Shown: positions 5,601 to 54,340 of the stretch, piece after piece
Layout of the letters: every line of letters begins with the position of its first letter
Numbering within the stretch: the first letter of the stretch is position 1
Assembly: GCA_903813345.2 (NCBI GenBank)
Contig: CAIIXF020000001.1
Coordinates: forward strand, 9,300,001 to 9,364,000
Direction: 5' to 3'
DNA: 64,000 bases
Source of the DNA: Owenia fusiformis
Taxonomy: Eukaryota
The notes under the pieces: generated by a model
Database searches by the model: none
The model's input: the letters and a program-made list of their open reading frames with translations, nothing else
What the model was told of the DNA's origin: nothing
Made by a program: the position numbers and the translations under genes

Positions 5601-5702
5601 ACATACCAAGTACTGTAAGACACAAAACAATTGATACACCCGCGAAGCATGATGTACAATATGGATATTATATTACAGAAGTGATTACAGGAAAATCTAA
5701 AT

Positions 5703-6749
5703 ATGAAGTCAAGAATGAATCGAAAAGTGTTGACATGTGGTGGAGTATGTACTGTGATATTCATAATCTCACTAACTATAAACATATTAGCTCTCATATT
5801 TGATGCAAGACGGGAAATTTACATTTTAGATGCCGAATCTCACCAAAGAGACATCATGTTCAACAATATTAATTTGACAACCAATATTGTGCATACAAAG
5901 CACAAAAGAAATACAAATCATCAAAATTCATTTTTGATCAATGAACCCAAGAAGTGTGGAAACTTTGGAGCAGTGTCATCTATTGATCCACCAACTATAT
6001 TAATAGCCGTTCTTTCATCTGTGAAAAACAAACACAAGCGGAATGCAATAAGAAAAACTTGGGCTGAAAAAGCCATTAAAAATAAGTCGATAAAATTGAT
6101 TTTTATTCTGGGTGTAGAATTAGAGTTCACTGAAAAGGACCAATTGGTGATACAAAAAGAAAGTGAAAGTTATCGTGATATCATCCAGGTGGATCTAGTC
6201 GACACTTATAAAAACTTAACTCTCAAGTCTCTTGCCATGCTAGAATGGACACAGACGTATTGTGATTCTGTCCGATTCCTTGTAAAGGCAGATGATGATT
6301 CATTCATTAATATTCCAAACTTGATCAAATTATTATTCATTCATTCCAGAGAATCATATCAGAAAGTGATTTTAGGGTACATATTCAAAGAGGTTGAGCC
6401 AATTCGCAATACAACATCTGTATACTTCACCCCCAAAACAACATACAACAATACCATATTTCCTCCATATGCTTCTGGAGGGGTATATGTTATATCTAGA
6501 ACTTTAATACCTGACATATTACATGCTTCAACTACACTGCGGTACTTCTTCATGGAGGATATTTATATAACAGGACTCTGTGCAGAGTTAACAAATGCAA
6601 GCCATATTCATATTTCCACAATTGAGTACAGGAAGATTATACTGGATCCTTGTATTTACAAACATCTCATATCAGCACATGGATTAGGTATTTCAGAACT
6701 CTATGAAATATGGAGGTTGATGCTTTCGGATGGTAGATCATCCTGTTAA
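5703..6749 (+). CDS. Beta-1,3-galactosyltransferase-like (GT31; B3GALT1/5-like), single-exon CDS, 348 aa
   Basis: N-terminal type II TM (VCTVIFIISLTINILALIF). GT31 motifs RNAIRKTW, DIIQVDLVDTYKNLTLKS, FLVKADDDSF (DxD), FPPYASGGVY and EDIYITG. Confidence 0.93.
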   Translation: MKSRMNRKVLTCGGVCTVIFIISLTINILALIFDARREIYILDAESHQRDIMFNNINLTTNIVHTKHKRNTNHQNSFLINEPKKCGNFGAVSSIDPPTILIAVLSSVKNKHKRNAIRKTWAEKAIKNKSIKLIFILGVELEFTEKDQLVIQKESESYRDIIQVDLVDTYKNLTLKSLAMLEWTQTYCDSVRFLVKADDDSFINIPNLIKLLFIHSRESYQKVILGYIFKEVEPIRNTTSVYFTPKTTYNNTIFPPYASGGVYVISRTLIPDILHASTTLRYFFMEDIYITGLCAELTNASHIHISTIEYRKIILDPCIYKHLISAHGLGISELYEIWRLMLSDGRSSC

Positions 6750-36884: not shown

Positions 36885-37143
36885 GCTTGGATTTTGCTAA
36901 ACAGTAACACGTTGAAAGTTTATAGTTGCTAATTTCAGATTTAAATCTATTATGAATTATTCTGATGAGATAATTGATAATGGTATAAATGTAAATACTT
37001 GGAATGATAAGTCAACAAAAGTTAAAATTCACAATAAAGTTATCTGAGATTGATTAAAAACACTACGGTGTTTGTAGTCTAAACTTTCTTCATCTTACTG
37101 TATTCTACCCACAATTCTCTTATTTACTGATTCAGCTTCCGGG
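36885..37143. promoter_or_regulatory. Bidirectional promoter between RPF1 and OS9
   Basis: The two ATGs diverge 259 bp apart. ETS-like CTTCCGG at 37136-42, Staf/ZNF143-like ctacccacaattc at ~37105, YY1-like ATGGCG at the RPF1 start. Confidence 0.75.
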
Positions 37144-40100
37144 ATGGAAGAGAAAACTAAAAAAGTTTTACTTTTTCTTGTTTTTCTCCATGTTGCATGG
37201 GGGTTTCTCGATTTCGAAGAACTTGAAAATGTGCATTATGGCATAAGTATACTAAATGAACCAAAACTTTTGAATGAGGTAGGTAAAGGCTTTGATTAGA
37301 TGCGTTTCAATATTTTTGCAATTTTTCATTTCTAAACTTTAGTTTCGTCCAGTGCAAACTCACAAGAACCAGTCTTCTAATATATCCAGATCCTATCCTA
37401 TATATGCTATGTGCTGGATATTCACAAAGGTAAATCCCCTATCATCCACAATTACGCCATCCTAGGGGGAAACCTTAGTCGGTAACACATATCCCATACC
37501 TAGGTATTGACATCTCGAATGACTTCCGCTGGATTACACATATTCAAAGTAGAGTCTATTGTATCCAAAGCCAATAAAGTGCTTCGATTCCTCAAGCGTG
37601 ACCTCCATCAATGCTCTGAAAAAGTGAAGGCCCATGCATATAAGTCACTAGTCCGGCCAAATTTAGAATATGCCAGTTCGGCACACAACTGACTATACTG
37701 ACAAAAAGACATTGATATGTTGGAACAGCAACAAGCCTGCACTACTGGTAAAGAGGGGTGATGTCAACGCAGTAGCCTGACAGTCGCCCCAGGATATTTC
37801 AACATAAAGGGACTTCCTAGGGGGGTACAGGGGCCAACCAGGAAGATTCCTTTCAATTTTAAAATGAGTTGTAAACCATAGATCTATTTTTAAATGTTAA
37901 GGTTTTAAATTATATTCTATTCAAATTCTATCACTGTTAAATTATATATCTGCTTTATATGGGCTTATTAGCCTTTTGCAGATTATTGACATAGACATAG
38001 GAACAGGTACACTGAAGATATCATATCAATATTTATTTCAAGTCGGATATTTTTTGTACAATAAACATTAGTGCAAGTGCTATTGACCGACATAGCACTA
38101 TTCCCAGGTCAAAATAATAGCATACATATTCAGGGTAATCATTAGCTAATGATTATGAAACAAATAGGTAACAAATAGTACAGCAATTTGACATGCAAAT
38201 GAGATAATCATTCAGGGTAATCATTAGCTAATGATTGTGAATTTAATGAAACACTGATTTCTTTCTTCGTTAATCATTCAGTAATTATTCAGAAACAAAT
38301 AGTTAATTATTCAGAAACAAATCAATAATTATTCAGAAACAAATCGGTAATTATTCAGAAAGAAACCGTTAATTATTCAGAAACAAATCGTTAATTATTC
38401 AGTCATTATTCAGGTTATCTGACTCATTTTCTTCTTTATCAAGACCCTGTTGCCTCTCCTGGAGCTGTCTTGTATTATTCTGACTAATACATGTTCATAT
38501 AGAGGTGACATATACTCCAAATTAATTTATATTTATCTGCTCAGAAACCTAGGGCTAAAATGAGTGTTTGTGCCCATGTATGGGGAACAACCCAAAATTG
38601 ATCAATTCAAAAAAAATATCTTGAATTCAAATTCATTAGAATAGTAGAGATAAATATGAATAAGTTTCAATCTAAACATGTTCTGCATACCTTTATGATT
38701 ATGTTGATCAAGTTTCAAGATAGTCTAGCCACCCTTCAGGTTGTTTATGCTCACTTTTATTAGACAAATAATTCTCTCACATCTTAACCAAATTTTAACG
38801 TCTGCCAATGTGGGGTTTCTCATTCTAAATCATGGACTTTTAGGTAATCATTCAGAAACAAATCGTTAATCACTCAGTAACAATTCGGAATAAAAAATTC
38901 CAAGTTAATCATTCAGAAACAAATCTTTAATTATTCAGTAACTATTCAGATAATTAATCATTCAGAAACAATTCAGTTGATTATTCAGAAACTAATCAGA
39001 CGTTGCTTTTAAATTCTTCAGGTTTTCTGATTAATTCCTGAAGGATTCAATAATCATTAGCTAATGATTATGAAATGATTTTTGTGACATAGAGCAGCCA
39101 GATTTGTAATCGAATGTCACTCAAGGGAACCAGGCTGCGTCAAAGCTCTCCAAGACCTACAGTGGGAGTCTCTGAAGCAGCGTAGAGAGGCTGCTAGACT
39201 TTTTATTTTTTTACAAAGGAAAGCAGAACCTAGCAGCCATCGAAGTGCCTCCATACTTCCACTAACAGATCAATACCAACACTAGGTTGTATCATCCTTC
39301 TAAGTTCATACAACCATCAACTAGAATGGATGCATACAAATTTAGCTTCAAATTTGATTGATCCAAATTGATTTAACTACTTCTGAATATTTACTTGAAT
39401 ACAAAATAAATTGTATTTAATAAATAGGAAGATGGATTCAATATAATTGAAAAAATTCTGAGGTATCATAATTCAGCTTAATTACCATATATATTATGAA
39501 AATGAACAAAATAAGACAGCGCTTGACCTAAGAAAATGCTCTTCAGAATTATCATTCCTTCCATTTAATAGATGGGCTAAATTGGCAATTTCATGTGATT
39601 GTAACTAATGTGATGTCAATGATGTCCATGTTAAACAGGAATTAAAAAACGGTGATAGAGAAGTTTAAATATGCACACATTAATTGTAAACATACTCAAG
39701 ACTCAATAAAAGACTTATGAAATAAAGAAATGAAACATGTCAATGTTTCCCTTATAATTCTTCTTATTAAGAAAAAAAGAATTGAAATATTTGATCAAGT
39801 ATATGAGCGAAAAGTATTTAAGGTTTAAGATGTGGACATGTCCAAAATTGTCAGTTTTTCAAAGTCATTGCCAAATAGCAATTATCTTAAAAGAGTCAGA
39901 ATTGATAGACCTCAAACAGGTTTAGCATGACAGGGAATCTCCAGAATATTAAAAAAAATCATGAACATTTTCAGGAACTTTTTTATTTGTTGCCCCTTTT
40001 ATGTTACAGGAGGTAGATGGATCTGTATTCCTGGCATCAATGTATGGCCAGCCATATCAATGTATCTACAGAGACCTTGTATCAGAGGAGAAGAAGGAGA

Positions 40101-43100
40101 AGACGGAAGAAGCTGAGGCACTGGAGATAGGAATTCCAGAGTTACTGAGGCCTATGGAGGGAAGCCCATGCCTCGTTTTTGTAAGTCGGAGAGATTTAAG
40201 CATTAAGTTTTTATTATCACACTTGGAAATGCTATATTTTCATTGTCTCGTGCAGATGAGTATGCCTCTGGATCGACTCCATATATTAAATCTTGTTTTT
40301 TAAATAAATTAATCATTCTTTCATTCCTTCTGACAAAATCAAGCGATGTAACATCGATACATGAATAATTAAACAACTTCAATAATTGTCATATCCAATA
40401 TACAGTGTTTTGAATAATTTACAGACTAAAGGCTGGTGGACCTATGAGTTCTGCTACAGAAAGCACATCAGACAGTATCACATGGAAGGTATGTCTTAGG
40501 CAGCTGTAGTAGGTGTTATATATAACATGTAAAGTGTCACCAATAGAGGCTTTACTCTCATTGAAGTCTTGTTTTTAATGACAATTTAGGAGATTAATAA
40601 TGACTTCTTTTAGACGAAAATTGATTTTGACAGTTTTTGAGCATCATTCTCATTAATTGTAATGCTTACAACTATGTAAATTTAAGTATTGTATGTTACT
40701 GCTCTGTTATTGACGTTTTCGCGAGTTAGTTTTGAGCTTCATTTCAAACATACATCTATTTTGGGAAACATTTCTAATTTTGACTAAATTTTGAAGCTTA
40801 TATTGGACTAATCATTATCCTCTCTCCTCCCTTTAAAATCAGTATTAACTCTATACTGTATAACTAGTGGTCCCGCGATTCATTATTGTTTATTTCAATA
40901 CAAGCAACGATATTTACCTCACGATACAATACAAACGATACAAGCAATGTAAGAGCGTAACAAATATTTTTATTTTTAAAAAACATATGGGTAAATAAGA
41001 CATTAAGATGCCAAATGTACCAACCACCGAATTTCGAACTCGTGAAACAGTATGAAACTATTAATGTCCTCCTAAAACTAATGTTCACTAGTGTCCAGTG
41101 TCCATTCATGATTTTTTTTCATTAAGTTTTTTTCAATAAAGGAAACCGGATATCCTAAATTGGAGATACATTCTATGCCACATTACACAAGGAAAATAAC
41201 AAAATGGGAAGATACAATCTTATTTAAACTGCTTTCAAACATGGTTTTGCTGTTTTGGGAGGGAAAAAACGATACAGAATTTTAACCGATATTCAAGTTA
41301 AGTATTGATACGCTCATATCATGCCTAATTGCTTGAGTGCTTGAGCAAATCCGAGCATTTGCGAGACCCCTATGTATGATACACTACTGCAGAAATGGAT
41401 TGCCTTCTATCAAAACAGACCTCAATAATCTTACTTTTTTATTGGAAATTCCAAAAATACACAATAATGTCTCAAATCTATTTTAAAAGTTGTTAACATT
41501 CAATTTATCAAATTTGGAAAGGAGACATAATAGCATGTTGTAATACATGTATATTATGTGTTCAATCAGTCATTTGATCATTTTGTATTTTAGATGGGAA
41601 GCCAAAGGGAAACATCATGTACCTCGGCTACTATGAATCTGACTTTGAATGGGATTCAAACATATCTGACGATGGAACTCAAGCACGTGTATGTATTAAT
41701 AAGATAACACATAAGACATGTGCTCTTAAAGGGTTCCGATAAGCATCCCGTATAAAAACAATATGGCGGCTCCAGGCGAATCAACTGGATCAGTCCATGT
41801 TTAAGAAATAAGGGGAGTTCTGTAAAATCCAGTTTATTGAAATTGTCTTTGAGATAAAGTAATCCGTTTATAATGATTTTGAAAACGTTATCCATAGAGT
41901 GATTGCGTTCAAACAGTACATGTACAACAGCCAATATAAATCCTTGTATTAGAACTGCTTTGTTTCATTTGTAGGATATTTCATATGCCAAGCTGTGTGC
42001 TATAACGTTATGGGGAAATTTAGATGCCAATTTTTCCTTATTATACACAAATAGAAGATCCTGAAACTTCACCCATAAATTTGGAATTGATTTGTCAAAA
42101 TAAAAATCACCCTTTTATAAATGTGTGACGATCTATAATATACTTATGCTATATAACAGTTAGAGGTGTTGACACAACGACCTCGAACCTGTGAACCCTT
42201 GAGTATTATTCCGGGATCGGGCCTTTTATACTAAGCGGTGAGCAACACCAGAAACGAGCGTTCGATTTGCTAAACGATATGCGTCACCCTTTAAATCTAT
42301 CATTTCAGGATTTTCTAAGTACTCTGTCCTCCTTATATGAATTTTAAAGTCACTTGATATTTAGATTACTTAAATTCATCTTTGGACCAAAGTACAGTAA
42401 TAACTGTCAAAAACTGTTCTTATGTGATGAAACACCCCCATTATAAAGACACGTTCAATGGAACATTTATCAATCAATATCCTTGTTGGTGTACCAAAGG
42501 TGTTCCACTCACACATGTTTTACTGTAGATGATTTCTCAGAAGCCTTTCGATGCACTTGTTACTGTCTATGTATTGTCTGTTCTTTTTCCAGTCTAAAAG
42601 ACGTAACAAATTGAACAAGTACCACAGCCAACAGTATGTGAATGGCTCCAAATGTGACCTAACTAGCAAGCCCAGAGAGGTGGAAGTTAGGGTAAGATTT
42701 AAAAGTGTAATGACCCGAGGGCGCTATAACTAGCGAGCATAGTGTAACAATTCAGGTTAAGAAATTGAAAGAAAGTGTGCTAAATTCAATGAGTGGGAAT
42801 CGAACCTAGGACCCTTGGACCTAAAGTCTGATGCTCTACCGACTGAGCTATAAAGGCTCAAGCCACTACAGCTGGACTGTAGTAGCAACATGCTATCAAG
42901 GGTCGTTACAAAAGTATATTGTGCAGTTTTAACTCAGCCTTGTGGAGATGAGGTGTGTACGGGGTGGGAGGGGGTGTACTGTTACAAGGGCTTGAACCAA
43001 GACTTTTTATGACAATCCCATGCTGGTAATGGTATTGAAAATATTAAATCATGCGTTGAAAACAATTGATTGTTTTGTCAATTATGACATACATGTAGTT

Positions 43101-46100
43101 CACAGTTACATATGTATATATATATCCATACATTTCAAAATGTAATGCAAGTAGAGATGGTCAAGTAGAGGCAGTGTTCCTTGGAGGGAGACAATGGCTT
43201 AAAGCTAGTCAGACCTCTTTAAAGAAGAATATTGTTTGAAAACATATAAGCTTAAAGAGATGTAATTTGTTTCTTGTTAAATTTCATATTCAATCATATT
43301 CCCCTACATTATTTTACAGTTTATATGCAATGCTGGGGAGGGTGACTATATTCTGAGGGTAGATGAGCCAGAGACTTGTATCTACACTATAACAGTGAGC
43401 ACCACCAAGATATGCCACCACCCATACCTGAAACCACCTCCCACAAACAAACCTGTGCCAATTGAGTGCAATCCTGTCCTAAACAAACAGCAGTTTGCTG
43501 TCTATCTGCAAGAAAAAGAAGGTATTGTTTCTTTGGATCATGCTTTAGATAATGTTGTAATTTTGAACATGAAAATCACATACAAAATGTACTGTTTTAA
43601 TTACTTACAATTCTTATGTTAATGGACCAAAAGTTTCAAGGAAAATTGTATTTTCAACAGAAAAGTGAAAAACTAGTTTGTGTTTTGTGGTATAAAACTT
43701 GTTTAAACATGAATAAATTTACATCTTCTTTCATTTTTTCCTTATATTAACCTTTTTTGGTTTCATTAATTTTGAAATACAGATAGAGGAAAAGAGATTA
43801 AAATACAAATCATTTAAAAGGTTGTCATGTCATTGCTTTACAGAGGAAAGAGTTAGATTGGAAGAAGAAATGAAGAGACTTGAAGAAGAGAAGATAAGGA
43901 AAGCTGAAGAAGCTATGCAAAAACTGAAAGATGAAAAACTATTAGCAGGTACACTTTCTTCTTGTACAACTTGTTCTTTTTATTTCTTTTTATACTTTTT
44001 ATAATTTTTTCTGATTATACGGCAGCAACATATCAATAATTTTGTATTCTGTTGTGTAGGTAGACTTCCAACAGAGTGTAGCTTGCCCAAGGATAGTGGT
44101 CCATGTAGAGCACTGTTCAGACGCTGGTATTACGACTCTGAAATCAGTCAGTGCCAGCCTTTTATCTACGGTGGATGCAAGGGAAATGGAAACAATTTTG
44201 AAACTCAGCAGCTGTGTCGAGAAAAGTGTGATATAAAACAACGTGAGTATTGCTAGTTGATTGAATAAATTAGGCAATTGTTGATATCAAGAAAATCCAA
44301 TGTTAATCCTTCTTAGACTGACAGAATATTTAAGATTCATATTAAATATAACACTTTCGCACTTTATCTTATCAAATTAAGTTAGTGTGGCCTTCTTTTT
44401 TTTATTAGATGTTTCTGGTAAACCCATCTCAATAGTCACTTACTCTACGCCCGGTATTTTTTGCGTGCGATTTAGTTTTATCAAAATATGACAATGGGTA
44501 GGTCTTATTACTGTAGATAAGGTAAATTAGTTTACAGATCTTGAGGATCCAGAGAATAATGGAATTTAAAACTTTGAAATCCGCGAAATTTAATGGCCGG
44601 GAAATTGGTATTTCTCAAAATTCGCGAAATTAAAACTCGCGGAAAATACCGGGCGTACAGTATATTGTGTGTCTGTCATGTAATATCATCATAGAAAGAA
44701 AGAAGTTCAAATAAAATAGAATCTATGTTTCTTGTATTTAAAGTTTAATTAAAGTTTTTTATACTTGATGAAGTATGTTTTGATGCCTGATCAAGTTGTT
44801 ATATTGCAATTATTTGTTTTAGAAATGGCAAGCAATAAAAACAGTCCTTTAGATGAAAGCTTGAACTTTGAATCATTTGGTGAGTTTGGTAGATCCAAAG
44901 AATTTTCCTCAACCGTAGATGCTCTAACAAAAGCTTTTACAGAGGGTCTTAGAAGTAGTGTGAAAGATATGATAGGGGATGTGGAAGGTTTTGGTAGGCA
45001 ATTTATTTTTATTTATCACTGGATACAAATCAATATTACCATCTGACTTGCACTTTTCTGGAACTCATTTCATTATAATTGTCTGGGTTACCATTGTTAA
45101 AGGGACTAAAAGGAAGAGAGACGAGATGGGATTAAGTTTTAACAAAATTGCCTCAATTTTACTACATGTATATGTTTTGCTCTCATGGCTTAATAGTCCA
45201 ACATCCAACTAAGTCCAAACATTAAAATTGGGACATTTTTAGGTATTTTGAATTTACTGGAATAATCCTATATTTATATAGTCCAGAATGGATATTCAAT
45301 TATTGAACATATTAAACCTAATTGAATGGCTCCCTTTAATTTATGATCTTGTACAATGTATTGGCATTGTATTGTTTTGTGTCCAGTCTTTACCTTGGTT
45401 TGCTTATAGATAGCTAACACAATGTACATGTATTTCCAATATGGCTTAAAATGTGGGCTTTAGTAATTAGTATTAGTTTTAGAATTCATAGACATCCTGG
45501 GTAAACAGCATTTGTGATAATAGACTGGTTAAGTAAATGTTGAAACTTAATGACCCTAAATTACCTTGATAATGACTTTTTAATGTTCACTTTGAAAGCT
45601 AATGTATGAGAGTGACAGATCTCTATTTATTGGGGTTTGCATTGTTTTCATAGTTTATCTACATCTTTATTTTAAAGGCACATACATAGTACATATTCAT
45701 ACATTTATACCACCCTAAGAGCTTTATATGATTGTATAATAGCATTGTATAACTGGAATATAAAACCAACACTCATCGTATACAACTCTTGAGAACGATA
45801 TACAACTCCTGGATAGGTATACAACTGCTGAATTTAGATTAATCTTTTATTGATTAAAGATTAGGGTGGGATAATAAGATCATATAATGGTTGATTCTGT
45901 ATATCGTTATACTCTCGTGAGTAATATGATATATTCACTTGTTCCCTTCGGTCACTCGTGAATATATCATATACTCACTTGAGAGTCTTGAGTATAAACA
46001 CGATATACGGAATCAACCATTATATAACCTCATAGTACAAAATGGACACATGTACACAAGATCCACCCATATACTGATACTAAAATGTAGTGGATAATTT

Positions 46101-49100
46101 GATTTCTTTTAGATCAAGATTTATTGGAACCAGATGTGCAGATTGAAGATGTCAAAATGGTTGGAGACCCTAAGGACATTGATAAAGTTATCAAAGAGGC
46201 ACTTGAAACTGCTAAAAACCAACAGAAATCTACTCCTGGTTCACAAAAAACTAAAGTCCCCAAAGGACCTGTTGAGTCAGAGAACGTGAAAAATACTCCG
46301 CAAAGTGGAACAGTATTGGATGATGTGGAGAATGAAGCCATTGATGGTGATACCAGTTTAGATGCTGAAGATGAGGAGGACGAGGATGATGATGAATTCT
46401 TAGATGACTTTGATGGGGGTATGTGCTCATATTTATCATGTGATCCCTAACTTTCTCTGATGCTTGTTGAATAACACCAGGAGAAGTTATATTCATCTAT
46501 ATTTACTAGTCATTCTGTTTATTATTACATTTGAATATTTTTTTAGTCCTCACTTTTAGCTATATTGTCCCTTATGCCTAACGTATGCCTATTGGGCAAA
46601 GTGCACGTGCCCCATGAAGCCTCACTGAGTCCCATGAGACTTGATAGTTCCAAGGGATTTCCCTCATTTTGTCCCACAGAGTTCAATTGAGTCCATTGGC
46701 CAGGGCTGCAAAGCTCCATTGGGTCCCATTGAATCTGCAATGCTACAGTCAAAACAGAAATGTTTGTGACTACTTTGAATTTAAAAAATAAGCAATCAAA
46801 TGACCATATTGAAACAGTTTATGTAAAAATAGAAATATTTATATTGATCCTAACTTTTGTATATTTCAGATAGTAATGTATAATGTGCAGCAAAGCTGTG
46901 GCCTTTTGTAATTTAGGGAGTTTCAGCCATGTTAATTTTTCCGAAAATAACATGGCAGAGAAGTATCAAAATATAAGATGACACAGATATGATAGCTAAA
47001 CTACAAATAAACTAAAATATACAAAAGTTAGGATAAATATAAATGTTTCTATTTTTACATAAACTGTTTCAATAGTACCCCGGACAGGTTGTATGATGCA
47101 GTCGTTTTTTTACTCTATATTTGCAATAGAACAACCATTCTTATTAAAATTTTCATATTTTATTTTAGAGACAATTTCCAACATGGAAAAAAAATATTTT
47201 AAAGAAATTCCTAATTTTATGATTTTGATAGGCTTTTTTCAAAAACACTCCACTGTCGATAAAATACAGGTTTCGCTTGAACAATTAAACTTTTAACGTC
47301 ATTTCAAAGATTGTCTATTATTGAATTTTTGGCAGCCTAAAGTCTTTCCAGATGTATTTGATGCCATATTAATTATGGCTGATTATTGTTATTCATTTTT
47401 GTCATATTCAATAGGCCTAATATTATTACAGTGCATTAGGCCAATGAAAAACTTGTCACTCTAGGTCACGTTTCCTCTGAAAACGCACCTTTTTCTCCAC
47501 TGGGTTTTTCCGCCACTGTCACTCAGCATGCAAGCCCGTGGCATGTAAATTGTACCATGCTTTTAAAATGCTAGGTCTCCCTGACAATTTCATGATAAAA
47601 TTTGACACAGCTATATTAACATCTCTGAAGGATCTTATGCCAAGAATACTTGAAATTGGAGATTCGTAATGTTTTACTTCATTTTGGACAGTATTGAACA
47701 GTTCGATCGGGTTGAACTCATGTCCGTGGACAAGAAGATTGACCTCCTCTATCTGGGCTCAATCTAGGGAACGCTTCACAAAACGAGACCCAGAGCTACA
47801 AGTTTTTATTGGCCTAATGCACTGTAATAATATTGAATATGACTCAAGTGAATAACAATGATCAGCCATAATTATTAATATGGCAACATATATATCTGGA
47901 AAGACATAGATGGCCGAAAATTCAATAGCCAGTCAATATTTGAAATGACGTTAAAAGTTTAATTGTTCAAGCAAAAACCCGTATTTTATTGACAGTGTAG
48001 TGTTTTTGAAAAAAGCCCGTCAAAATCATAAAATTGGGAATTTCGTTAAAATATTTTTTTTCCATGTTGGAAATTGTCTCCAGAATAAAATATGAAAATT
48101 TTAATAAGAATGGTTGTTCTATTGCAAATATAGAGTAAAAAAATGACTGCATCATACAACCTGTCCGGGGTACTATGGTCATTTGATTGCTTATTTTAAA
48201 AATTCAAAGTAGTCACAAACATTTCTGTTTTGACTATAGTTCTATGAATGGCCCACAATACTCTATTTGTGTACATTTAGAATGAACCTCATTTTAAATC
48301 CCTCTAAGTAAATAACATCAATATTCAGCATGTTCATAATAAATCCCATAATCTTTATGCATGTAGCAGTGCATGGCAGAAAATTGTAATTCATTCAGCT
48401 GGTTAGCCTCGCAATGTGCATTTAATTCTGTTCATAATACCACTTCACTACTGTTGTAATACTGTATATGTTGGATAACATAATAGCTTAATGATAATAA
48501 CATTTCGATTCATTCTGAATGTTGATTGGTGGAATATGATACTGACGAGTGTGGACCATGTAAATCATAGTCTTTGTTAATACATTCATTTGTAAAAACC
48601 ATTGAATCTCACTTATGCAGATGAGTATGAGGATGATGACGAATATTATGAAGAAGATGGTGAGGACAATGGTTATGTTGGAGAGTATGAAAATGATGAT
48701 AGTATTATTGATGAATTTGAAGAAGGTATTGAACCTAGGGATAGGGTTTCTTGATATGCTTGCTTTGTGTGGCTTTTTGATTTCACATTTTTTAATCTTC
48801 TGTGATGCCTTGCAACCAAAAGTCCCATTCAGAGATTTTCAGCTTCCATGTTTTGTTTTCTCTCTCACTTGGCAGGACCTATACTATGCTTTTTGTCAAC
48901 ACATGTATGCACACTGTCAGTGTCACTGCCATTGATGTTGTACATTGTATACCTTGTTGATATTGTATTTATATTATGTATGTTATTTTTATCATCCCAC
49001 AGAACAAAGTTTGAGGGGGATATAGGAAAGCCATCCGTCCATCCGTCCGTTCGTCTGTCTGTCCCGGCAATAACTCAAATACTGATTGACGGATTTGACT

Positions 49101-52100
49101 CAGATTTTATAGGCTTATGCCTTATGGTTGTAGGACCTCTGCTGGAGAAGGAATTTTTAATATGGCGGCTCAAATTAAAATGGCCGCCATTATTCGTAAA
49201 AAATGAAACCTATGATAACTCAATTACTAGTGGACGGATTTGGTTCCAATTTTATATGCTGATGTGGAGGAACAGAGGAGCTTTTATTCAAGAAGAATTT
49301 TTTCAAGATGGCTGCTGATTTCCAAAATGGCCACCATTTTTTGCAAGAAAACGTTATCTTTGATAACTCAAATACCAGTAAACGGATTTCATCCAAATTT
49401 TATATGCTGATGCCTAGGGACACAGTTGCTATGTTCTAGAAAACATTTTCAAGATGGTGGCTGAATTTCAAAATATTTGATAACTCAAAAACCAGTGAAT
49501 GGATTTAGTTCAAATTTTATATGCTGAAGCCAAGGGACACTGTTGCTCTGTTCGAGAATCAATTTTCAAGATGGCATCTGAATTTCAAAATGGCCACCAC
49601 TTTTCCCCAAAAATCCTTGGTAACTCAAAAACCAGTGAACAAATTTGGTTTAAATTTTAGAACCTGATATGCTCTGTTCAAGAAGGAGTTTACAAGATGG
49701 CCACTAATTATCAAAATGTGTTTTGTTCAATGGGATTTGGTCCTCCTCGGAGTTGCTGTTTTTCTTGTATATTTTATAATTATACTTTTATTTATTAATT
49801 TCTGTAATTCTTTAAGTAATTTCAAATTCTGCTTTGTCAATCTGTCTGGTCAAACACTGTTACGTGGGTTCATTTTGCACCCCCTTTCCTTTGAATTTAG
49901 TGATTTGAAGAATTTGCCAATTTACATCCCCACTCCAAGGAATTTGCTCTTTTCCACTGAAATATTTTTCGAGGTCTCCTCTGCCGAAGGCAGCGCAAAG
50001 TAGGAGCATAGCGACTACTTTGCGGGAGACCTCGAACCATTGATCACGTTTGCTCCTGTAATTATTCACTTCTTCACCTCTTTAAAATGTGATTTCAATC
50101 AGTTGATCAAAATTTCGGACTTTGACCTCAAATTCAAATATTAATATTTATAAAACAAAATACTGACTCATTATTATATTTTTAAAAGTCTTTCAAATAA
50201 AGTGAAATGAAGCCAAAATCAGCTAAAATTATGCAATGTCGTAAAATGGCGTGACTGGAATATGATGCAATCACCCGTGACATCAGACACGTATTGCCAC
50301 ATCAACAACTAAACAAACAATATAGACTTCACTGATTGGTTTAAAGATTCTTCGCATCATTTGTGACGTCATAAACATGTTACCCAACCAACAACTAAAC
50401 AAATAACAAATAGGCATATAGGTACGTTCAGTGCCACGCTGTTGAATCAGTTATAAACAGGGATAATCAACAGATATATGAGAGGGTCAGGCATTTTTTG
50501 ACTTGGAGACCTCGAATCGAGGAGTTTGCTGCATTTTCTTGTTTAGGAAATCATGTCTATTGTAGATAATCTATGGAAAACGCAACAGTCGAATTACTTG
50601 TCTAAAATGTTGGGCATTGAATTCAATAATTGAAATATTCACGAATGTGGTCTATACCAGGCCCGTAGCCAGGGGGGGTTCGCAGGGTTCGGGCGAACCC
50701 CCCCCCCTGGCAAAAAATTCTTTCAAAATCATGCAGTTTTTCACGATTTTGAGCATTTCTCAAGTGATTTTAGCCATATTTGGGCCAAAATTGTCAGATG
50801 TGAACCCCCCCCCCCCCGGAAATTTTTGAAAACTGAACCCCCCTTATGGGCCTGTATACAAATGCAAAAAATGAAATATATTAGATACATGTAGTGTCAA
50901 ATTAATCCAAGTTACAGTTTAATTAAAGATGACATCATCCATTTAATCTTATGGAATATTTAAACCCATTGCTACAAATCTTCCTGGGCCTCACCTCATT
51001 TGGCTTAAAGTAGTTGTTTACCGCCATGTTTTCTAGCTTTAAGTAAAAAACAAAGTTGGTGACACCAACATTTTTTGTTTGATATATGAGGCATAATTAT
51101 GTCATGGTCATGTTAATATAAAAATACATGCATTCTGTCGTAAAGTAACTTTTAGCCCTCCCAGTAAACAATCACTTGTGCAATAATTGTGTGCACTTTA
51201 CACTCTGCAAACTGCCTCTTGGCTTTTGTGATTACATGTAGTACAACTGCTGCAAAAGTCATATCCTTACTTTACAGAACATGTATGTGTAAACATGTGA
51301 GCTGCCATAGAAAGTAAAATATTTCAAAGATTAAAAGATGATACCACCAGTACCCACCCCACAAAACTCTCATTTTTCATTCTACATGGGCTCAAAATGA
51401 TGTACCATTTAGATTCAGAATTTAATTTTATGATATTACATCAAATATATACATCCGATATATTGATATTGCATCTAGCCTATGAATAATAAGTTGATAA
51501 CCCAAACACCATTCACAAGATGCATCTATATACTGTGGAGTCTATTTTATTTTAGATTACAATAAGATAGCAGACAATAAGGAGAAGAGGGTAGCCATTG
51601 GGGCACAGAAAGCTAAGATTAAAGATGCCATGACTGCCAAGTTTGGAGATATAATCAAGGAGGTAATAATATCAAATTAGAATCAATAAACATATTTTGA
51701 CATATTTAGAACTTAGTTTATTTTATTTACCAGGATTTTCATCTTTTCTGAAGTTTTAAGGTCATATCATAATCTGTATTTCAACAACATCATTTAGTTG
51801 TATAAGGGAGTTTTGCAATTTGGAAATATTTTATAAATCAAGAAACTTGCTTGTTTTTCCATTGTGTATACAGGTATACTGGTACATAGCCCAACCAACA
51901 CAAGTGCTGTCATCTATTTGTCTATGAATGAACAGTAATATAATAGCCTCTTATATTTTGATTGTTCACTAGGCAGAAGCAGAGGAAGGAGTGGAAGCCA
52001 ATGAGGAGACAAAGGGTCATGCCTATACGCAACTTGCCAAAACATTAACAAAACTATTAGATAGACTAGAAAAAGCTGAAAAAGGTACCATCTATGGAAA

Positions 52101-54340
52101 ACACAATTTTCCTTATATTAAGTATTAAGAGAACAATTTTAAAAAATTCAAAAGTAATACATGTACTTCCAACCTCTTTATATGGTTGCTGAAATCTATT
52201 AATTATTATCTGTACCTATTAATATCTGATGAAGTATTTTGGTATGATTGAAATTGATTCAAGATTTCTGATAGGAAGTGTTGTCACGGACTCTTAAACT
52301 TGCTTATAATAGCAGTATTAGCAACAACAAACAAAACTTGATCTTTACTTTCTGAGCAAAGAGTTCCTCAAGGCAATGTGAAGATATACAAAATTAAGAC
52401 ATGATCAGTTGAATTGGAATCTTAGACAATATTAACAAAATTTATCAGATGATTTTGTTCTGTAATTTGCAAATTAAGAGTTGATGACATCACTTTCTGT
52501 ATTATCTTTATAAATGGCAGCCCAGTTGAAATGAACAGTTTATGAGTAATTGGTTATCAACCGAATCAAGACAGCAATGGGCTATTGCGGAATGTCCTTT
52601 TAACTAAAGTTCTTGCATCTGTTGTAAAAAATTTAGTTTTATTTTATTTCAAAAGCACATTTTCATGTACAGAAAAATAGAAGATTGAATTAGTATTAAA
52701 TAGTACTACTTACAAACATCATCATTGACTTGTTGTAGATATACAGAATGTGGATGAACATATAAAAGGAGTAAAAGAAAATGATTTAGAAAAACCAGTT
52801 CAATCTACAACAAATCTTGGTAAGACACTGATCCTAGTGTTAAGTATGCATGTATTTTGTATATCTTACACTAGTAATGCATGTCCATGTATCACATCTG
52901 GTATCACATATTATCAATTAGTCTTACATTGAAGAGGGATGACAACATCTCATGGTCTCATACTTTTGTTCAAACATAAATAGCATACACATGCCTTTGT
53001 GGCATCAGCTTAGATTCTGAGAAGATTCAAGACCCAGTAATCCACTCTATGAACGTTTATAGGAATCTTTCCCATTGAAATCCTAACGGTTGATTTCACT
53101 TCCTTTACAGAGGCTGATAAGAGTAATACAGCTGCAGTAAGGGATTCTTCTACATCAGTGGCCAAACCACCAGACAAGACTAGCACAAATGATGAAGAAA
53201 ATATAAAAATAAGGGTTACCAGATTAAAAGCTGGTGAATCGATGGAGGATATTAATAAAAAAGCTTCCTTGAAGATACCTGATGAGCAGAAGGAAGAGTT
53301 AGAAAACACAGTAAAAGAAGAGTTGGAAAAGGCAGGGCTGGACACGGGAGGTAAGACATTTAATACAATACTAATATATGTCTCTTCTTAAAACTGCTTA
53401 TAGTGTGTATGTATAATTCATTTGCGTTTTACACATTAAGACAACTGCATTACATGTTATGTAGTTTGGTATACTGTAGAGTAGTATGCAAGTTTACTTG
53501 TTAAATTCTGCCACCATCTGTCTCGAATAAATTATTTTCTTTAAAAAGTTGCTGTTATCTTTGTAGAATAATGGGAAAGCATTTCATCGTAAAAATAATC
53601 TAAAATTCAACATAGTTTAATCACTCACCTATGTTTGGCATGAATTCAATTTTATTCCAGGTCGGCCCATTGAGATAAAGATCATTGCCACTGGTTATAT
53701 GGGTGAAGATGATGAAAATGTCCATACACTATCTGGGGATGAAACTAAAGCCTTTAATAAAATGCTAGTAGCCTTTATAGTGAGTAACATTTTGTGATGT
53801 CAAAAAAAAGTTAATTTTTATCCCACAGAAAATGTCCTGTAGGGACATAGAGAAACTGTCCACCTGTCTGTCATTCTTGCGTTAGATCCATAAATCAAAT
53901 ATGTTTTTGGATTTGGTTCTTTATAGGCTAATGCCTTATGGGCAATTTAAAAGGGCAGCCATTTTTCATAAAAATATATTCTTTGATAAATCATATATCA
54001 GTTGACAGATTTGGGCCAGATTTTATGTGCTGATAAATTAAGAAGCTATGTTCAAGAAAAAATGGCCACCATTTTTCATGGAAAGATGTCATTTTTTGAA
54101 TAGTGTTAACTATAGAGTGCTATTCACATGATCAGGTTTTACCAGCTCATATTTGAGAACATGGGTGTTTGTCTTTATATCTCTTGTACATTATTTCAGG
54201 GGGCAGGTGGTCAGGAGGCACATAAAGAGCAGAAAAGACAAGATAAAATGGAAGAGAATTACAGTTACGTTTTTGGAAAAAATAAAAAATCTCAGTCTTC
54301 ACAATCAGCAACACAACCAAAAATATATGGGGGAGCATGA
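37144..54340 (+). CDS. OS9: Protein OS-9 (ERAD lectin, MRH domain), 17 exons including a Kunitz exon, ~811 aa
   Basis: Exons 37144-37278, 40010-40180, 40425-40488, 41594-41688, 42593-42691, 43320-43521, 43844-43948, 44060-44242, 44823-44993, 46113-46418, 48621-48725, 51556-51662, 51973-52084, 52739-52819, 53111-53350, 53661-53779, 54200-54340 (2436 nt, phases consistent). Signal peptide followed by [20 protein letters not shown] motifs [36 protein letters not shown] and [10 protein letters not shown]-terminal [14 protein letters not shown] and [10 protein letters not shown] resemble OS9. Confidence 0.92.
37480..39350 (+). mobile_element. Degraded LINE (CR1/L2-like) RT 3' fragment, split by a ~1.35 kb insertion
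   Basis: [13 protein letters not shown]...[15 protein letters not shown] at 37567-37680. It resumes at ~39091 with RAARFV...[18 protein letters not shown]. Frameshifted and truncated. Confidence 0.8.
38130..39076. repeat. Minisatellite-rich insert (ATTATTCAGAAACAAAT units; palindrome TAATCATTAGCTAATGATTA x3)
   Basis: Arrays at ~38270-38415 and ~38845-39000. The 20-bp palindrome occurs at ~38136, ~38218 and ~39051. Confidence 0.75.
42706..42910. mobile_element. 205-bp TGT...ACA element with 4-bp TSD, carrying a tRNA-Lys-derived segment
   Basis: aaag|TGTAATGACCC ... GGGTCGTTACA|aaag. Confidence 0.75.
42785..42857 (-). pseudogene. tRNA-Lys(UUU)-derived sequence (pseudo-tRNA / SINE-like head)
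   Basis: Minus strand reads GCCTTTATAGCTCAGTCGGTAGAGCATCAGACTTTAGGTCCAAGGGTCCTAGGTTCGATTCCC. A box and B box are intact. Anticodon and acceptor stems are degenerate. Confidence 0.75.
44060..44242 (+). CDS. Kunitz/BPTI serine-protease-inhibitor domain exon (exon 8 of the OS9 model)
   Basis: Bounded by gttgtgtag|GT and C|gtgagt, 183 nt, phase 1-1. Translates [61 protein letters not shown], with canonical C-x8-C-x15-C-x7-C-x12-C-x3-C spacing. Confidence 0.92.
44443..44660. mobile_element. Shorter copy of the 35774-36174 Tc1-like MITE
   Basis: ta|ctctacgcccggtatttt ... aaaataccgggcgtacag|ta. Confidence 0.8.
45882..46027. mobile_element. Palindromic MITE
   Basis: atataatggttgattctgtatatcgt...acgatatacggaatcaaccattatata. 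Central hairpin atgatatattcac...gtgaatatatcat. Confidence 0.75.
46743..48239. mobile_element. ~1.5 kb foldback element with ~450-bp inverted arms; left arm interrupted by a palindromic MITE (~46808-47074)
   Basis: 46743-46808 plus 47073-47455 are the reverse complement of ~47800-48239. This explains the twin ORFs 47093(+) and 47967(-). Confidence 0.85.
48986..49768 (+). mobile_element. Helentron/DINE-like non-autonomous element (HINE) with internal tandem subrepeats
   Basis: ttttatcatcccacag...ggggatatagg, then a TCCG/TCTG microsatellite, ~120-140-bp repeats containing caagatgg/aaaatggcc, and a cttgt end. Degraded copy at ~53815-54080. Confidence 0.7.
50658..50854. mobile_element. MITE family A copy
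   Basis: tatac|CAGGCCCGTAGCCAGG ... GGGCCTG|tatac (5-bp TSD). Inverted relative to 3395-3586. Confidence 0.85.

Follow-up and report, generated by a model that had tools for sequence, protein, structure and literature searches.

A Kunitz-domain exon is spliced into the mRNA for the endoplasmic reticulum lectin OS-9 in Owenia fusiformis

OS-9, whose yeast counterpart is Yos9, is a soluble protein of the endoplasmic reticulum (ER) lumen; it is the MRH lectin of the SEL1L-HRD1 ERAD complex and selects ERAD clients through trimmed glycans and misfolded surfaces. Kunitz/BPTI domains (PF00014), the inhibitors among which form MEROPS family I2, also occur as non-inhibitory modules and channel toxins. 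The KPI exon of APP is an alternatively spliced Kunitz exon, and the tri-Kunitz inhibitor SmCI comes from the annelid Sabellastarte magnifica. Kunitz action inside the secretory pathway is represented by HAI-1 and HAI-2 (SPINT1/2). The "chaperone" function of these two proteins for matriptase is traced to their blocking of unwanted catalysis within the cell, where HAI-2 is described as largely staying (PMC12940448).

The window analyzed here (the whole stretch of Owenia fusiformis DNA, 64,000 nucleotides) carries a 17-exon OS-9 orthologue (37120-54340), of which coding exon 8 is a Kunitz exon. In the encoded protein, as in animal OS-9/Yos9, a PF07915 MRH domain bearing the double-Trp motif is accompanied by a helical segment, a long, alternatively spliced acidic linker, and a C-terminal part that is conserved; its N terminus looks signal-peptide-like. 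Unlike them, it has a 60-residue Kunitz insert behind the helical segment. As with the KPI exon of APP, a single Kunitz domain is encoded by a single symmetrical exon in a non-inhibitor host, and the two reactive loops are very similar (APPI chains match with E values of about 1e-17, 49 to 55% identity, and TM scores of 0.82 to 0.85); the APP exon, however, is alternative and its host is a cell-surface protein, whereas the Owenia exon looks constitutive and its host is a lectin of, presumably, the ER lumen. The structural matches of the Owenia domain include HAI Kunitz domains (1yc0_I, 4isl_B, and 4u32_X), and their action inside the secretory pathway may have a likeness in the Owenia protein, although HAI-1 and HAI-2 are transmembrane proteins dedicated to inhibition, lacking both a lectin domain and a link to ERAD. 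Among solved structures, SmCI (PDB 4bd9_B) gives the best sequence match, at 49 to 60 bits per domain, but it is a free, secreted, multi-Kunitz inhibitor, whereas the Owenia domain sits within OS-9.

Exon borders were taken from the exact mapping of P0079, P0078, and P0224 to the window. Three NCBI proteins of Owenia fusiformis (746, 784, and 819 amino acids, each an "unnamed protein product") are reproduced exactly by the window, and the Kunitz exon is present in all three annotated isoforms, which are automatic models flagged as "partial."

Table 1. Parts of the Owenia fusiformis OS-9 gene, in window positions
Feature	Position	Strand	Remarks
Coding exon 1	37120-37278	+	Annotated CDS is 5'-partial from 37120; exact protein mapping
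Likely start ATG	37144	+	A1 orthologues begin at the same Met; a signal-peptide-like hydrophobic stretch comes next
Coding exons 2-6	40010-40180, 40425-40488, 41594-41688, 42593-42691, 43320-43521	+	MRH lectin domain, double-Trp
Coding exon 7	43844-43948	+	105 nt, phase 1-1; charged helical (coiled-coil-like) linker behind MRH
Intron 7	43949-44059	+	111 nt, GT..AG
Coding exon 8	44060-44242	+	183 nt, phase 1-1; Kunitz/BPTI domain
Intron 8	44243-44822	+	580 nt, GT..AG
High-copy element in intron 8	44441-44662		25-nt inverted terminal repeats (inverted repeat I1)
Coding exon 9	44823-44993	+	Phase 1-1; alternative inner donor after 44879 in the 746-aa isoform
Coding exon 10	46113-46418	+	Phase 1-1; acidic low-complexity linker
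Cassette exon	48621-48725	+	105 nt, phase 1-1, acidic; 819-aa isoform only
Coding exons 12-14	51556-51662, 51973-52084, 52739-52819	+	C-terminal part common to OS-9 orthologues
Coding exons 15-17	53111-53350, 53661-53779, 54200-54340 (with stop)	+	C-terminal part common to OS-9 orthologues

Judged by its sequence, the Kunitz-bearing gene is the OS-9 orthologue of Owenia fusiformis, the identity that a first-pass annotation of this DNA had given it. Among proteins of solved structure, human OS-9 isoform 2 (9og0_E) comes closest, with an E value of 5.9e-76 versus 2.7e-32 for ERLEC1 (XTP3-B; 8kes_E), and nearly all of the descriptively named relatives among the matches listed are called "protein OS-9(-like)" or "endoplasmic reticulum lectin." Identity to named OS-9 proteins is 44 to 60% over the first 299 residues. 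The host aligns end to end with OS-9 orthologues, C terminus included, in alignment A1, and the match of P0078 to the A1 profile extends across positions 2 to 727 of 730. The MRH domain spans residues 106 to 184 (PF07915; E value, 9.3e-16; 58.9 bits against a cutoff of 27). Q127, R191, E212, and Y218, the sugar-contacting residues of this domain, are invariant in A1. The same is true, in 13 of 13 sequences, of the double-Trp motif (W114 and W115), the role of which is treated in PMC3332353, and of C107, C120, C184, C199, C216, and C228. A hydrophobic stretch follows Met9, with a helix over residues 7 to 23 in the full-length AF2 model, and a further helix is predicted over residues 252 to 298 (AF2 block pLDDT, 72 to 82). 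The full-length model, built on a 13-sequence alignment, is poor (mean pLDDT, 47.8) and leaves the Kunitz region unfolded at a pLDDT below 50, so it says nothing on contacts between the domains. The Owenia protein has no KDEL-type C-terminal end, and human OS-9 is not known to have one either.

The Kunitz exon was delimited by a script demanding GT/AG borders and exact translation, which returned the coordinates, phases, and exon number first assigned to it. The acceptor reads ...tgttgtgtag/GTAGAC at 44059/44060 and the donor AAC/gtgagt at 44242/44243, between the exon 7 end CAG/gtacac at 43948 and the exon 9 start tttag/AAATGG at 44823. A single forward frame is open, running from 44062 through 60 codons without a stop, while the remaining two contain 1 and 7 stops. 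When the exon is deleted in silico, the OS-9 frame stays open and no stop arises. Its translation lacks both an in-frame Met and a signal peptide, as had been noticed at the outset. Coding exons 7 to 11 of the gene are all phase 1-1, and a symmetrical exon amid the phase-1 introns of the linker behind the MRH domain is a classic exon-shuffling arrangement. A search for target-site duplications and for direct repeats on either side of the exon, and another for a shift in composition, brought up nothing telling.

The fusion is a genuine domain shuffle restricted to one lineage; public gene models already contain it, but it is undescribed in the papers found. Outside Owenia, a Kunitz domain was found in 0 of 258 proteins of the OS-9 family, which agrees with the early view that the architecture is unusual. 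PF00014 occurs on 2 of the 120 OS-9 matches listed and PF07915 on 2 of 104 Kunitz matches, both of them from Owenia in each case. The Kunitz matches include many multi-domain hosts, and the module is very widely shuffled in invertebrates. No fusion of OS-9 and Kunitz was found in the available parts of the literature, where the co-mentions are transcriptome or UPR studies with the two words apart. The novelty claimed for the fusion by the first-pass annotation is somewhat reduced, because the fused model is already in NCBI as three unnamed proteins.

A differently labeled relative, sequenced in run X13 and here called organism B, is about 92% identical and is the sole close relative compared (∼8% divergence). 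One 770-nt X13 transcript contig runs from exon 6 through exon 7 and the Kunitz exon into exon 9, of which it holds 22 nt. Differences between the two organisms are about as dense in the Kunitz exon (14 in 176 nt) as in exon 6 (15 in 201 nt) and exon 7 (8 in 109 nt). Eight of the 14 Kunitz differences are listed, of which 5 are synonymous, and they give a pN/pS of about 0.14 in a listing from which differences within ∼30 nt of the ends of the aligned pieces seem to be absent. Elsewhere in OS-9, pN/pS is 0.24 in exon 6, which belongs to the MRH domain, and 0.42 in exon 10 of the linker, and linker exon 7 has 0 synonymous and 4 non-synonymous changes among the differences listed. The listed Kunitz differences (8 of 14) spare the G-P-C-R-A codons and the cysteines, with C6, C52, and C56 lying beyond the reach of the listing. 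The Kunitz exon is kept, spliced, and mostly synonymously diverged in organism B. Our confidence in the observed part, namely, an Owenia OS-9 with a shuffled and spliced Kunitz exon that is absent from the other OS-9 proteins examined, is high, and this grading covers the retention in organism B jointly with the rest.

These data bear on the possibility that the exon is a tolerated passenger, which chance brought into a phase-1 intron within a disordered linker, which is spliced in because the frame is kept, and which plays no role in OS-9. The insertion site, after the MRH domain, is the least conserved part of OS-9, in which the orthologues of A1 vary by long indels, and the run of phase 1-1 exons from 7 to 11 means that any symmetrical exon would be tolerated there. 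The restriction of the architecture to one lineage and the wide shuffling of Kunitz modules in invertebrates are also in keeping with such an event. However, the listed differences from organism B are mainly synonymous, with a pN/pS lower than that of the flanking linker exons, the hallmarks of an inhibitor are intact, and inclusion appears to be constitutive. We consider the passenger explanation rather unlikely.

The Kunitz exon is spliced into the OS-9 mRNA, and its inclusion is apparently constitutive. Run X18 is stranded RNA-seq on record, of which about 6% was read. Six raw X18 reads with six different starts cross the joint from exon 7 to the Kunitz exon (43948^44060), and together with the gene models they bear out the in-frame splicing that had been predicted from the borders. 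Five raw RNA reads cross the joint between exons 6 and 7 (43521^43844), and joints 44879^46113 and 44993^46113 are each supported by two raw reads and one X13 contig. The downstream joint of the Kunitz exon, 44242^44823, is absent from the raw-read joints listed and is seen only in the X13 contig, whose shorter flank there measures 22 nt. The skipping joint 43948^44823 is not among the joints listed for the one RNA run, at ∼6% read. X18 depth is 4.3 and 3.1 in the Kunitz bins, 5.1 and 3.3 in those of exon 7, and 2.6 and 5.3 in those of exon 9, falling to 0 in intron 6 and to 0.11 just past the Kunitz exon. Runs X1 and X2, labeled "RNA?," were set aside as splicing evidence; their contigs pass from exon into intron (e.g., 44064-44311) and are thus uninformative on splicing.

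The tissue-specific or alternative isoform suggested by the first-pass annotation finds no support within this limited sampling. A cassette regulated like the KPI exon of APP, and included in some tissues or stages only, would be compatible with a symmetrical exon whose skipping keeps the frame, and the same linker is alternatively spliced at the inner donor of exon 9 and at the acidic cassette exon; the RNA view, moreover, takes in about 6% of one run and the listed joints only. Against such regulation, the Kunitz exon is included in 3 of 3 isoforms and in the organism B contig, the skipping joint is unlisted versus six reads for inclusion at the upstream joint, and the exon is covered as deeply as its constitutive neighbors. 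Regulated inclusion is, on this evidence, distinctly unlikely.

The exon product, residues 300 to 359 of the annotated proteins, is one complete Kunitz/BPTI domain. Its frame matches PF00014 with an E value of 9.2e-23 and 80.6 bits (cutoff, 21) over profile positions 2 to 52 of 53, much more than chance would give, and in the full-length protein the match lies at residues 305 to 355 (E value, 8.2e-21). Profile, regular expression, and translation agree with the original reading of the domain: the six cysteines fit C-x8-C-x15-C-x7-C-x12-C-x3-C, and the sequence contains GPCRA and the signature [13 protein letters not shown]. All six cysteines are invariant in alignment A2, and FIYGGC is in the sequence. 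In the reactive loop GPCRA, to which GPCR and GPCK correspond in aligned domains of SmCI and TFPI, P1 is Arg (codon 44107-44109) and P1' is Ala; YGGC forms the secondary loop. PDB sequence matches comprise SmCI, boophilin, TFPI, bikunin, APPI, and BPTI, with ShPI-1 also among the nearest, and apart from Owenia's own proteins the nearest Kunitz relative is no closer than 64% identity. Folded alone on alignment A2, the domain reaches a mean AF2 pLDDT of 89.7, and the best 50 Foldseek matches of this model in the PDB are all Kunitz domains (TM score, 0.82 to 0.93). Solved Kunitz inhibitors match with TM scores of 0.83 to 0.93 and an rmsd of 0.5 to 1.2 Å, and many of them were solved in complex with trypsin or mesotrypsin.

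The structural neighbors also include domains with other roles, such as collagen VI C5, dendrotoxin-type channel blockers, and a vasopressin-receptor antagonist, and the Kunitz fold might accordingly serve here as an adaptor that binds an ER partner or a substrate class without blocking any protease. The G-P-C-R-A and YGGC loops, however, are those of active inhibitors, and the nearest sequences are the proven inhibitors SmCI, boophilin, TFPI, ShPI-1, and APPI, which makes a purely non-inhibitory module highly unlikely. An artifact, in which the exon would be part of another, nested gene or would have been wrongly fused to OS-9 by model or assembly, is exceedingly improbable. The automatic, partial, and unnamed state of the public proteins could be cited for it, but raw RNA reads span the joint between exon 7 and the Kunitz exon, the independent organism B contig joins exons 6, 7, 8, and 9, and the exon matches both neighboring phases with no in-frame Met or signal peptide.

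Read from its sequence, the domain has all the hallmarks of an active inhibitor (G-P-C-R-A, P1 Arg, P1' Ala, and the YGGC loop); whether it works as one in Owenia we judge about evenly balanced. Since OS-9 is soluble in the oxidizing ER lumen, a Kunitz domain with three disulfides should fold there. The canonical loop would most likely bind trypsin-like S1 serine proteases tightly while tethered to an ERAD lectin, and the likeliest consequence would be the neutralization, in the early secretory pathway, of active proteases and of those that switch themselves on prematurely. Bound proteases may also be held at the SEL1L-HRD1 complex for disposal; a trap that would pass its catch to this complex, as put forward in the first-pass annotation, is coherent with the sequence. 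Such restraint would resemble that exerted by the HAI-1 and HAI-2 Kunitz domains on matriptase inside the cell. The best explanation of the locus as a whole, a shuffled and spliced exon that provides an ER-lumenal protease inhibitor tethered to an ERAD lectin, is one that we favor by a modest degree.

A more far-reaching proposal, unlikely in our estimation, is that OS-9 has become an ERAD receptor with an activity-based bait, with the Kunitz loop catching serine proteases already catalytically competent in the ER (prematurely activated ones or intrinsically active zymogens) for delivery to SEL1L-HRD1. Because the bait is part of OS-9, captured proteases would reach this complex for retrotranslocation. 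If true, this would amount to a glycan-independent, function-sensing selection of ERAD clients, of which we found no description in the available parts of the literature searched. The combination of a lectin with an activity-based bait would offer a ready-made, testable design for finding out if active enzymes can be made targets of ERAD. An OS-9 with an intact trypsin-type inhibitor loop suggests that protease control is coupled to ER quality control in one animal lineage, a significance limited by the narrow taxonomic range seen and by the predicted nature of the function. The locus is also a clean, transcript-supported case of a housekeeping gene that took up an exon by phase 1-1 shuffling.

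Two further candidates were rejected. The sole small relative of the domain, considered as a possible donor or orthologous fragment, is a nematode protein with 53% identity and is neither. A SINE had been suspected in the gene region from an ORF translation, and the tRNA scan returned 0 genes. Over the intron 8 element, at 44449-44666, read depth rises to hundreds to thousands in all four runs.

The Kunitz exon of the Owenia OS-9 gene has a single open frame of 60 codons, starting at 44062, while the remaining two forward frames contain 1 and 7 stops. This frame matches Pfam PF00014 over 51 of 53 profile positions, with an E value of 9.2e-23 and a score of 80.6 bits, the cut-off being 21. Both the sequence and a regular-expression search place its six cysteines at the canonical spacing of 8/15/7/12/3, with G-P-C-R-A as the reactive loop and F-I-Y-G-G-C as the secondary loop. 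The exon lies between a polypyrimidine-rich acceptor (…tgttgtgtag/G) and a strong donor (C/gtgagt). The first-pass annotation, which had proposed such an exon from its splice borders, phases, cysteines and loop motifs, was correct in every detail. The model predicted for the domain, folded alone with a 13-sequence alignment of Kunitz domains, has a mean pLDDT of 89.7, and all 50 of its listed PDB neighbors are Kunitz domains (TM 0.82 to 0.93, rmsd mostly 0.5 to 1.4 Å).

Features of the OS-9 locus and of a separate coding frame in the window (OS-9 gene and Kunitz exon by script, from GT/AG borders and exact translation)
Feature	Position	Strand	Description
OS-9 gene	37120-54340	+	17 coding exons
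Kunitz exon	44060-44242	+	183 nt, phase 1 on both sides, coding exon 8
Acidic cassette exon	48621-48725	+	105 nt, phase 1-1, 819-aa isoform only
Galactosyl_T frame	5685-6749	+	uninterrupted 354 codons; Pfam PF01762, E 1.4e-48; transmembrane-like N-terminus

A search of the 60-residue domain against longer proteins returned two matches with 100% identity and coverage, both carrying PF07915 together with PF00014 and both named "unnamed protein product, partial [Owenia fusiformis]"; PF07915 was found in none of the remaining 102 matches. A third isoform came from a cluster look-up, and all three (CAH1772844-6; 746, 819, and 784 aa) match the window letter for letter. The best solved relative of the Owenia protein is human OS-9 isoform 2 (E 5.9e-76), with ERLEC1 behind it at 2.7e-32, and an alignment of 13 OS-9 proteins shows conservation of the double-Trp motif (its role is described in PMC3332353), the MRH cysteines and the C-terminal region. 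The host protein is thus an OS-9 orthologue by sequence comparison, as first proposed. In the same alignment the Kunitz domain is an insertion confined to Owenia; it follows a helical segment and falls in the linker, which cannot be aligned. Residues 1-299 retrieved 602 proteins at an E value of ≤1e-10, the best 120 of which are mostly named OS-9 or "endoplasmic reticulum lectin." An oyster protein of 50% identity comes directly after Owenia's own proteins among the matches, which indicates that no close Kunitz-free paralogue has been annotated. The public coding models, flagged as partial, begin 24 nt (37120-37143) upstream of the likely ATG at 37144, which encodes the Met where OS-9 orthologues start.

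Four sequencing runs, including raw RNA-seq of the same species label, were mapped onto positions 43250-46500. In stranded RNA-seq run X18, of which about 6% was read, the reads have the strand expected for a plus-strand gene and depth is limited to exons: 4.3 and 3.1 in the Kunitz bins, 5.1 and 3.3 in exon 7, and 2.6 and 5.3 in exon 9, against 0 in intron 6 and 0.11 immediately beyond 44242. The joint of exon 7 to the Kunitz exon (43948^44060) is covered by 6 reads with 6 distinct starts, and the neighboring joint 43521^43844 by 5; the 3′ joint 44242^44823 is absent among the joints listed for this portion of the run at a threshold of 3 reads. Run X13, from a differently labelled relative about 92% identical (organism B), shows depth over exons only, repeats excepted, as expected for RNA. 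One of its contigs (770 nt) joins exon 6, exon 7, the Kunitz exon and 22 nt of exon 9, with three and two replaced letters at its two joints. Contigs of runs X1 and X2 continue from exon into intron and are uninformative on splicing. The X18 joint reads and the X13 contig show that the Kunitz exon belongs to OS-9 mRNA, as the first-pass annotation had anticipated, and that it does so in two organisms; they rule out a separate nested gene. At 44142 and 44144, within the exon, the contigs of X1, X2, and X13 all differ from the window (GAA to GAG, synonymous; ATC to ACC, Ile to Thr), which may carry a minority allele.

The architecture is unusual. PF00014 occurs in 2 of the 120 OS-9 matches listed, both from Owenia, and is absent from the OS-9 of the annelid Dimorphilus among them. 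A profile of the OS-9 alignment, searched against 1.84 billion representatives, found 3446 proteins at an E value of ≤0.001, of which the best 150 were retrieved. Phmmer, a Kunitz HMM built from the domain's longer-protein matches, and a cysteine regular expression were applied to 261 OS-9-family proteins, with positives in the three Owenia isoforms only; of the 258 without a Kunitz domain, 170 are at least 550 aa long and the rest are partly fragments that perhaps lack the linker. Protein searches yielded no donor for the exon, no match outside Owenia exceeding 64% identity to the domain, and no description of the fusion was found in the literature searched, as judged from listings. As far as these searches reach, the combination has not been described before and occurs in this lineage alone. 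The novelty first claimed holds in this respect but not entirely, since the fused architecture is already public as three unnamed gene models.

The OS-9 linker is divided by a series of phase-1 introns (each of exons 7 to 11 is phase 1-1), and the frame stays open when exon 8 is removed. The symmetrical Kunitz exon stands within this series, is spliced in, and is conserved in a near relative. OS-9 is described as a soluble lectin of the ER lumen that is linked to SEL1L-HRD1 (PMC6272264), so a disulfide-rich Kunitz domain within it would be expected to reach its fold in the ER, exposed to proteins of the lumen. With P1 Arg and P1′ Ala, the intact canonical loop is predicted to inhibit trypsin-like S1 proteases tightly. 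The reading with most support is a predicted tethered ER-lumenal protease inhibitor, whose likeliest role would be to neutralize prematurely active proteases. There is a precedent in HAI-1 and HAI-2: the "chaperone" effect that they exert on matriptase inside the cell is attributed to Kunitz inhibition of unwanted activity (PMC12940448). The observation behind the first-pass annotation is confirmed and its interpretation supported in part: OS-9 with a predicted inhibitor module is real, expressed and lineage-restricted. A handover of bound proteases to HRD1 for degradation is possible but improbable.

Among the alternatives, a passenger exon tolerated by a disordered linker is unlikely, though it survives best. 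Between the X13 contig and the window, the Kunitz exon has 14 differences over 176 positions, exon 6 has 15 over 201, and exon 7 has 8 over 109. Eight of the 14 Kunitz-exon differences are listed, 5 synonymous and 3 not (F to Y, S to F, I to T), which gives a crude pN/pS of ~0.14 over 38 assessable codons; the same count gives 0.24 for MRH exon 6, 0.42 for linker exon 10, and 0 synonymous and 4 non-synonymous differences in exon 7. The eight leave the cysteines and the G-P-C-R-A codons untouched, in an assessed stretch that excludes the piece ends with three Cys codons. These small numbers are suggestive of purifying selection on the exon. A regulated cassette, akin to the tissue-specific isoform first envisaged, is more doubtful: what varies among the isoforms is the use of an inner exon 9 donor (after 44879) and of the acidic cassette exon, all three keep the Kunitz exon, and the skipping joint 43948^44823 is not among the joints listed for X18 (about 6% of the run, threshold 3 reads), so that nothing suggests optional use. 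A non-inhibitory adaptor is less probable again; the top solved-structure sequence matches of the domain (SmCI, boophilin, TFPI, bikunin, ShPI-1, APPI, and BPTI) are proven inhibitors, and many of the listed PDB neighbors sit in complexes with trypsin, mesotrypsin, plasmin or factor XI. An artefact is highly improbable given the spliced reads.

The OS-9 linker is alternatively spliced, and the exon 9 donors at 44879 and 44993 have 2 raw reads each. Intron 8 contains a short element (44441-44662) with 25-nt inverted terminal repeats, 88% complementary and 172 nt apart, that resembles a high-copy MITE; in all four runs, organism B included, its depth in reads or contigs climbs into the hundreds to thousands. 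Intron 9 holds another repeat of very high copy number (45650-46083), just upstream of exon 10; its word depth in X2 rises to about 30,000, and it shows numerous internal joints and loose ends. Elsewhere in the window, the Galactosyl_T frame probably represents a beta-1,3-galactosyltransferase-like gene with a single exon.
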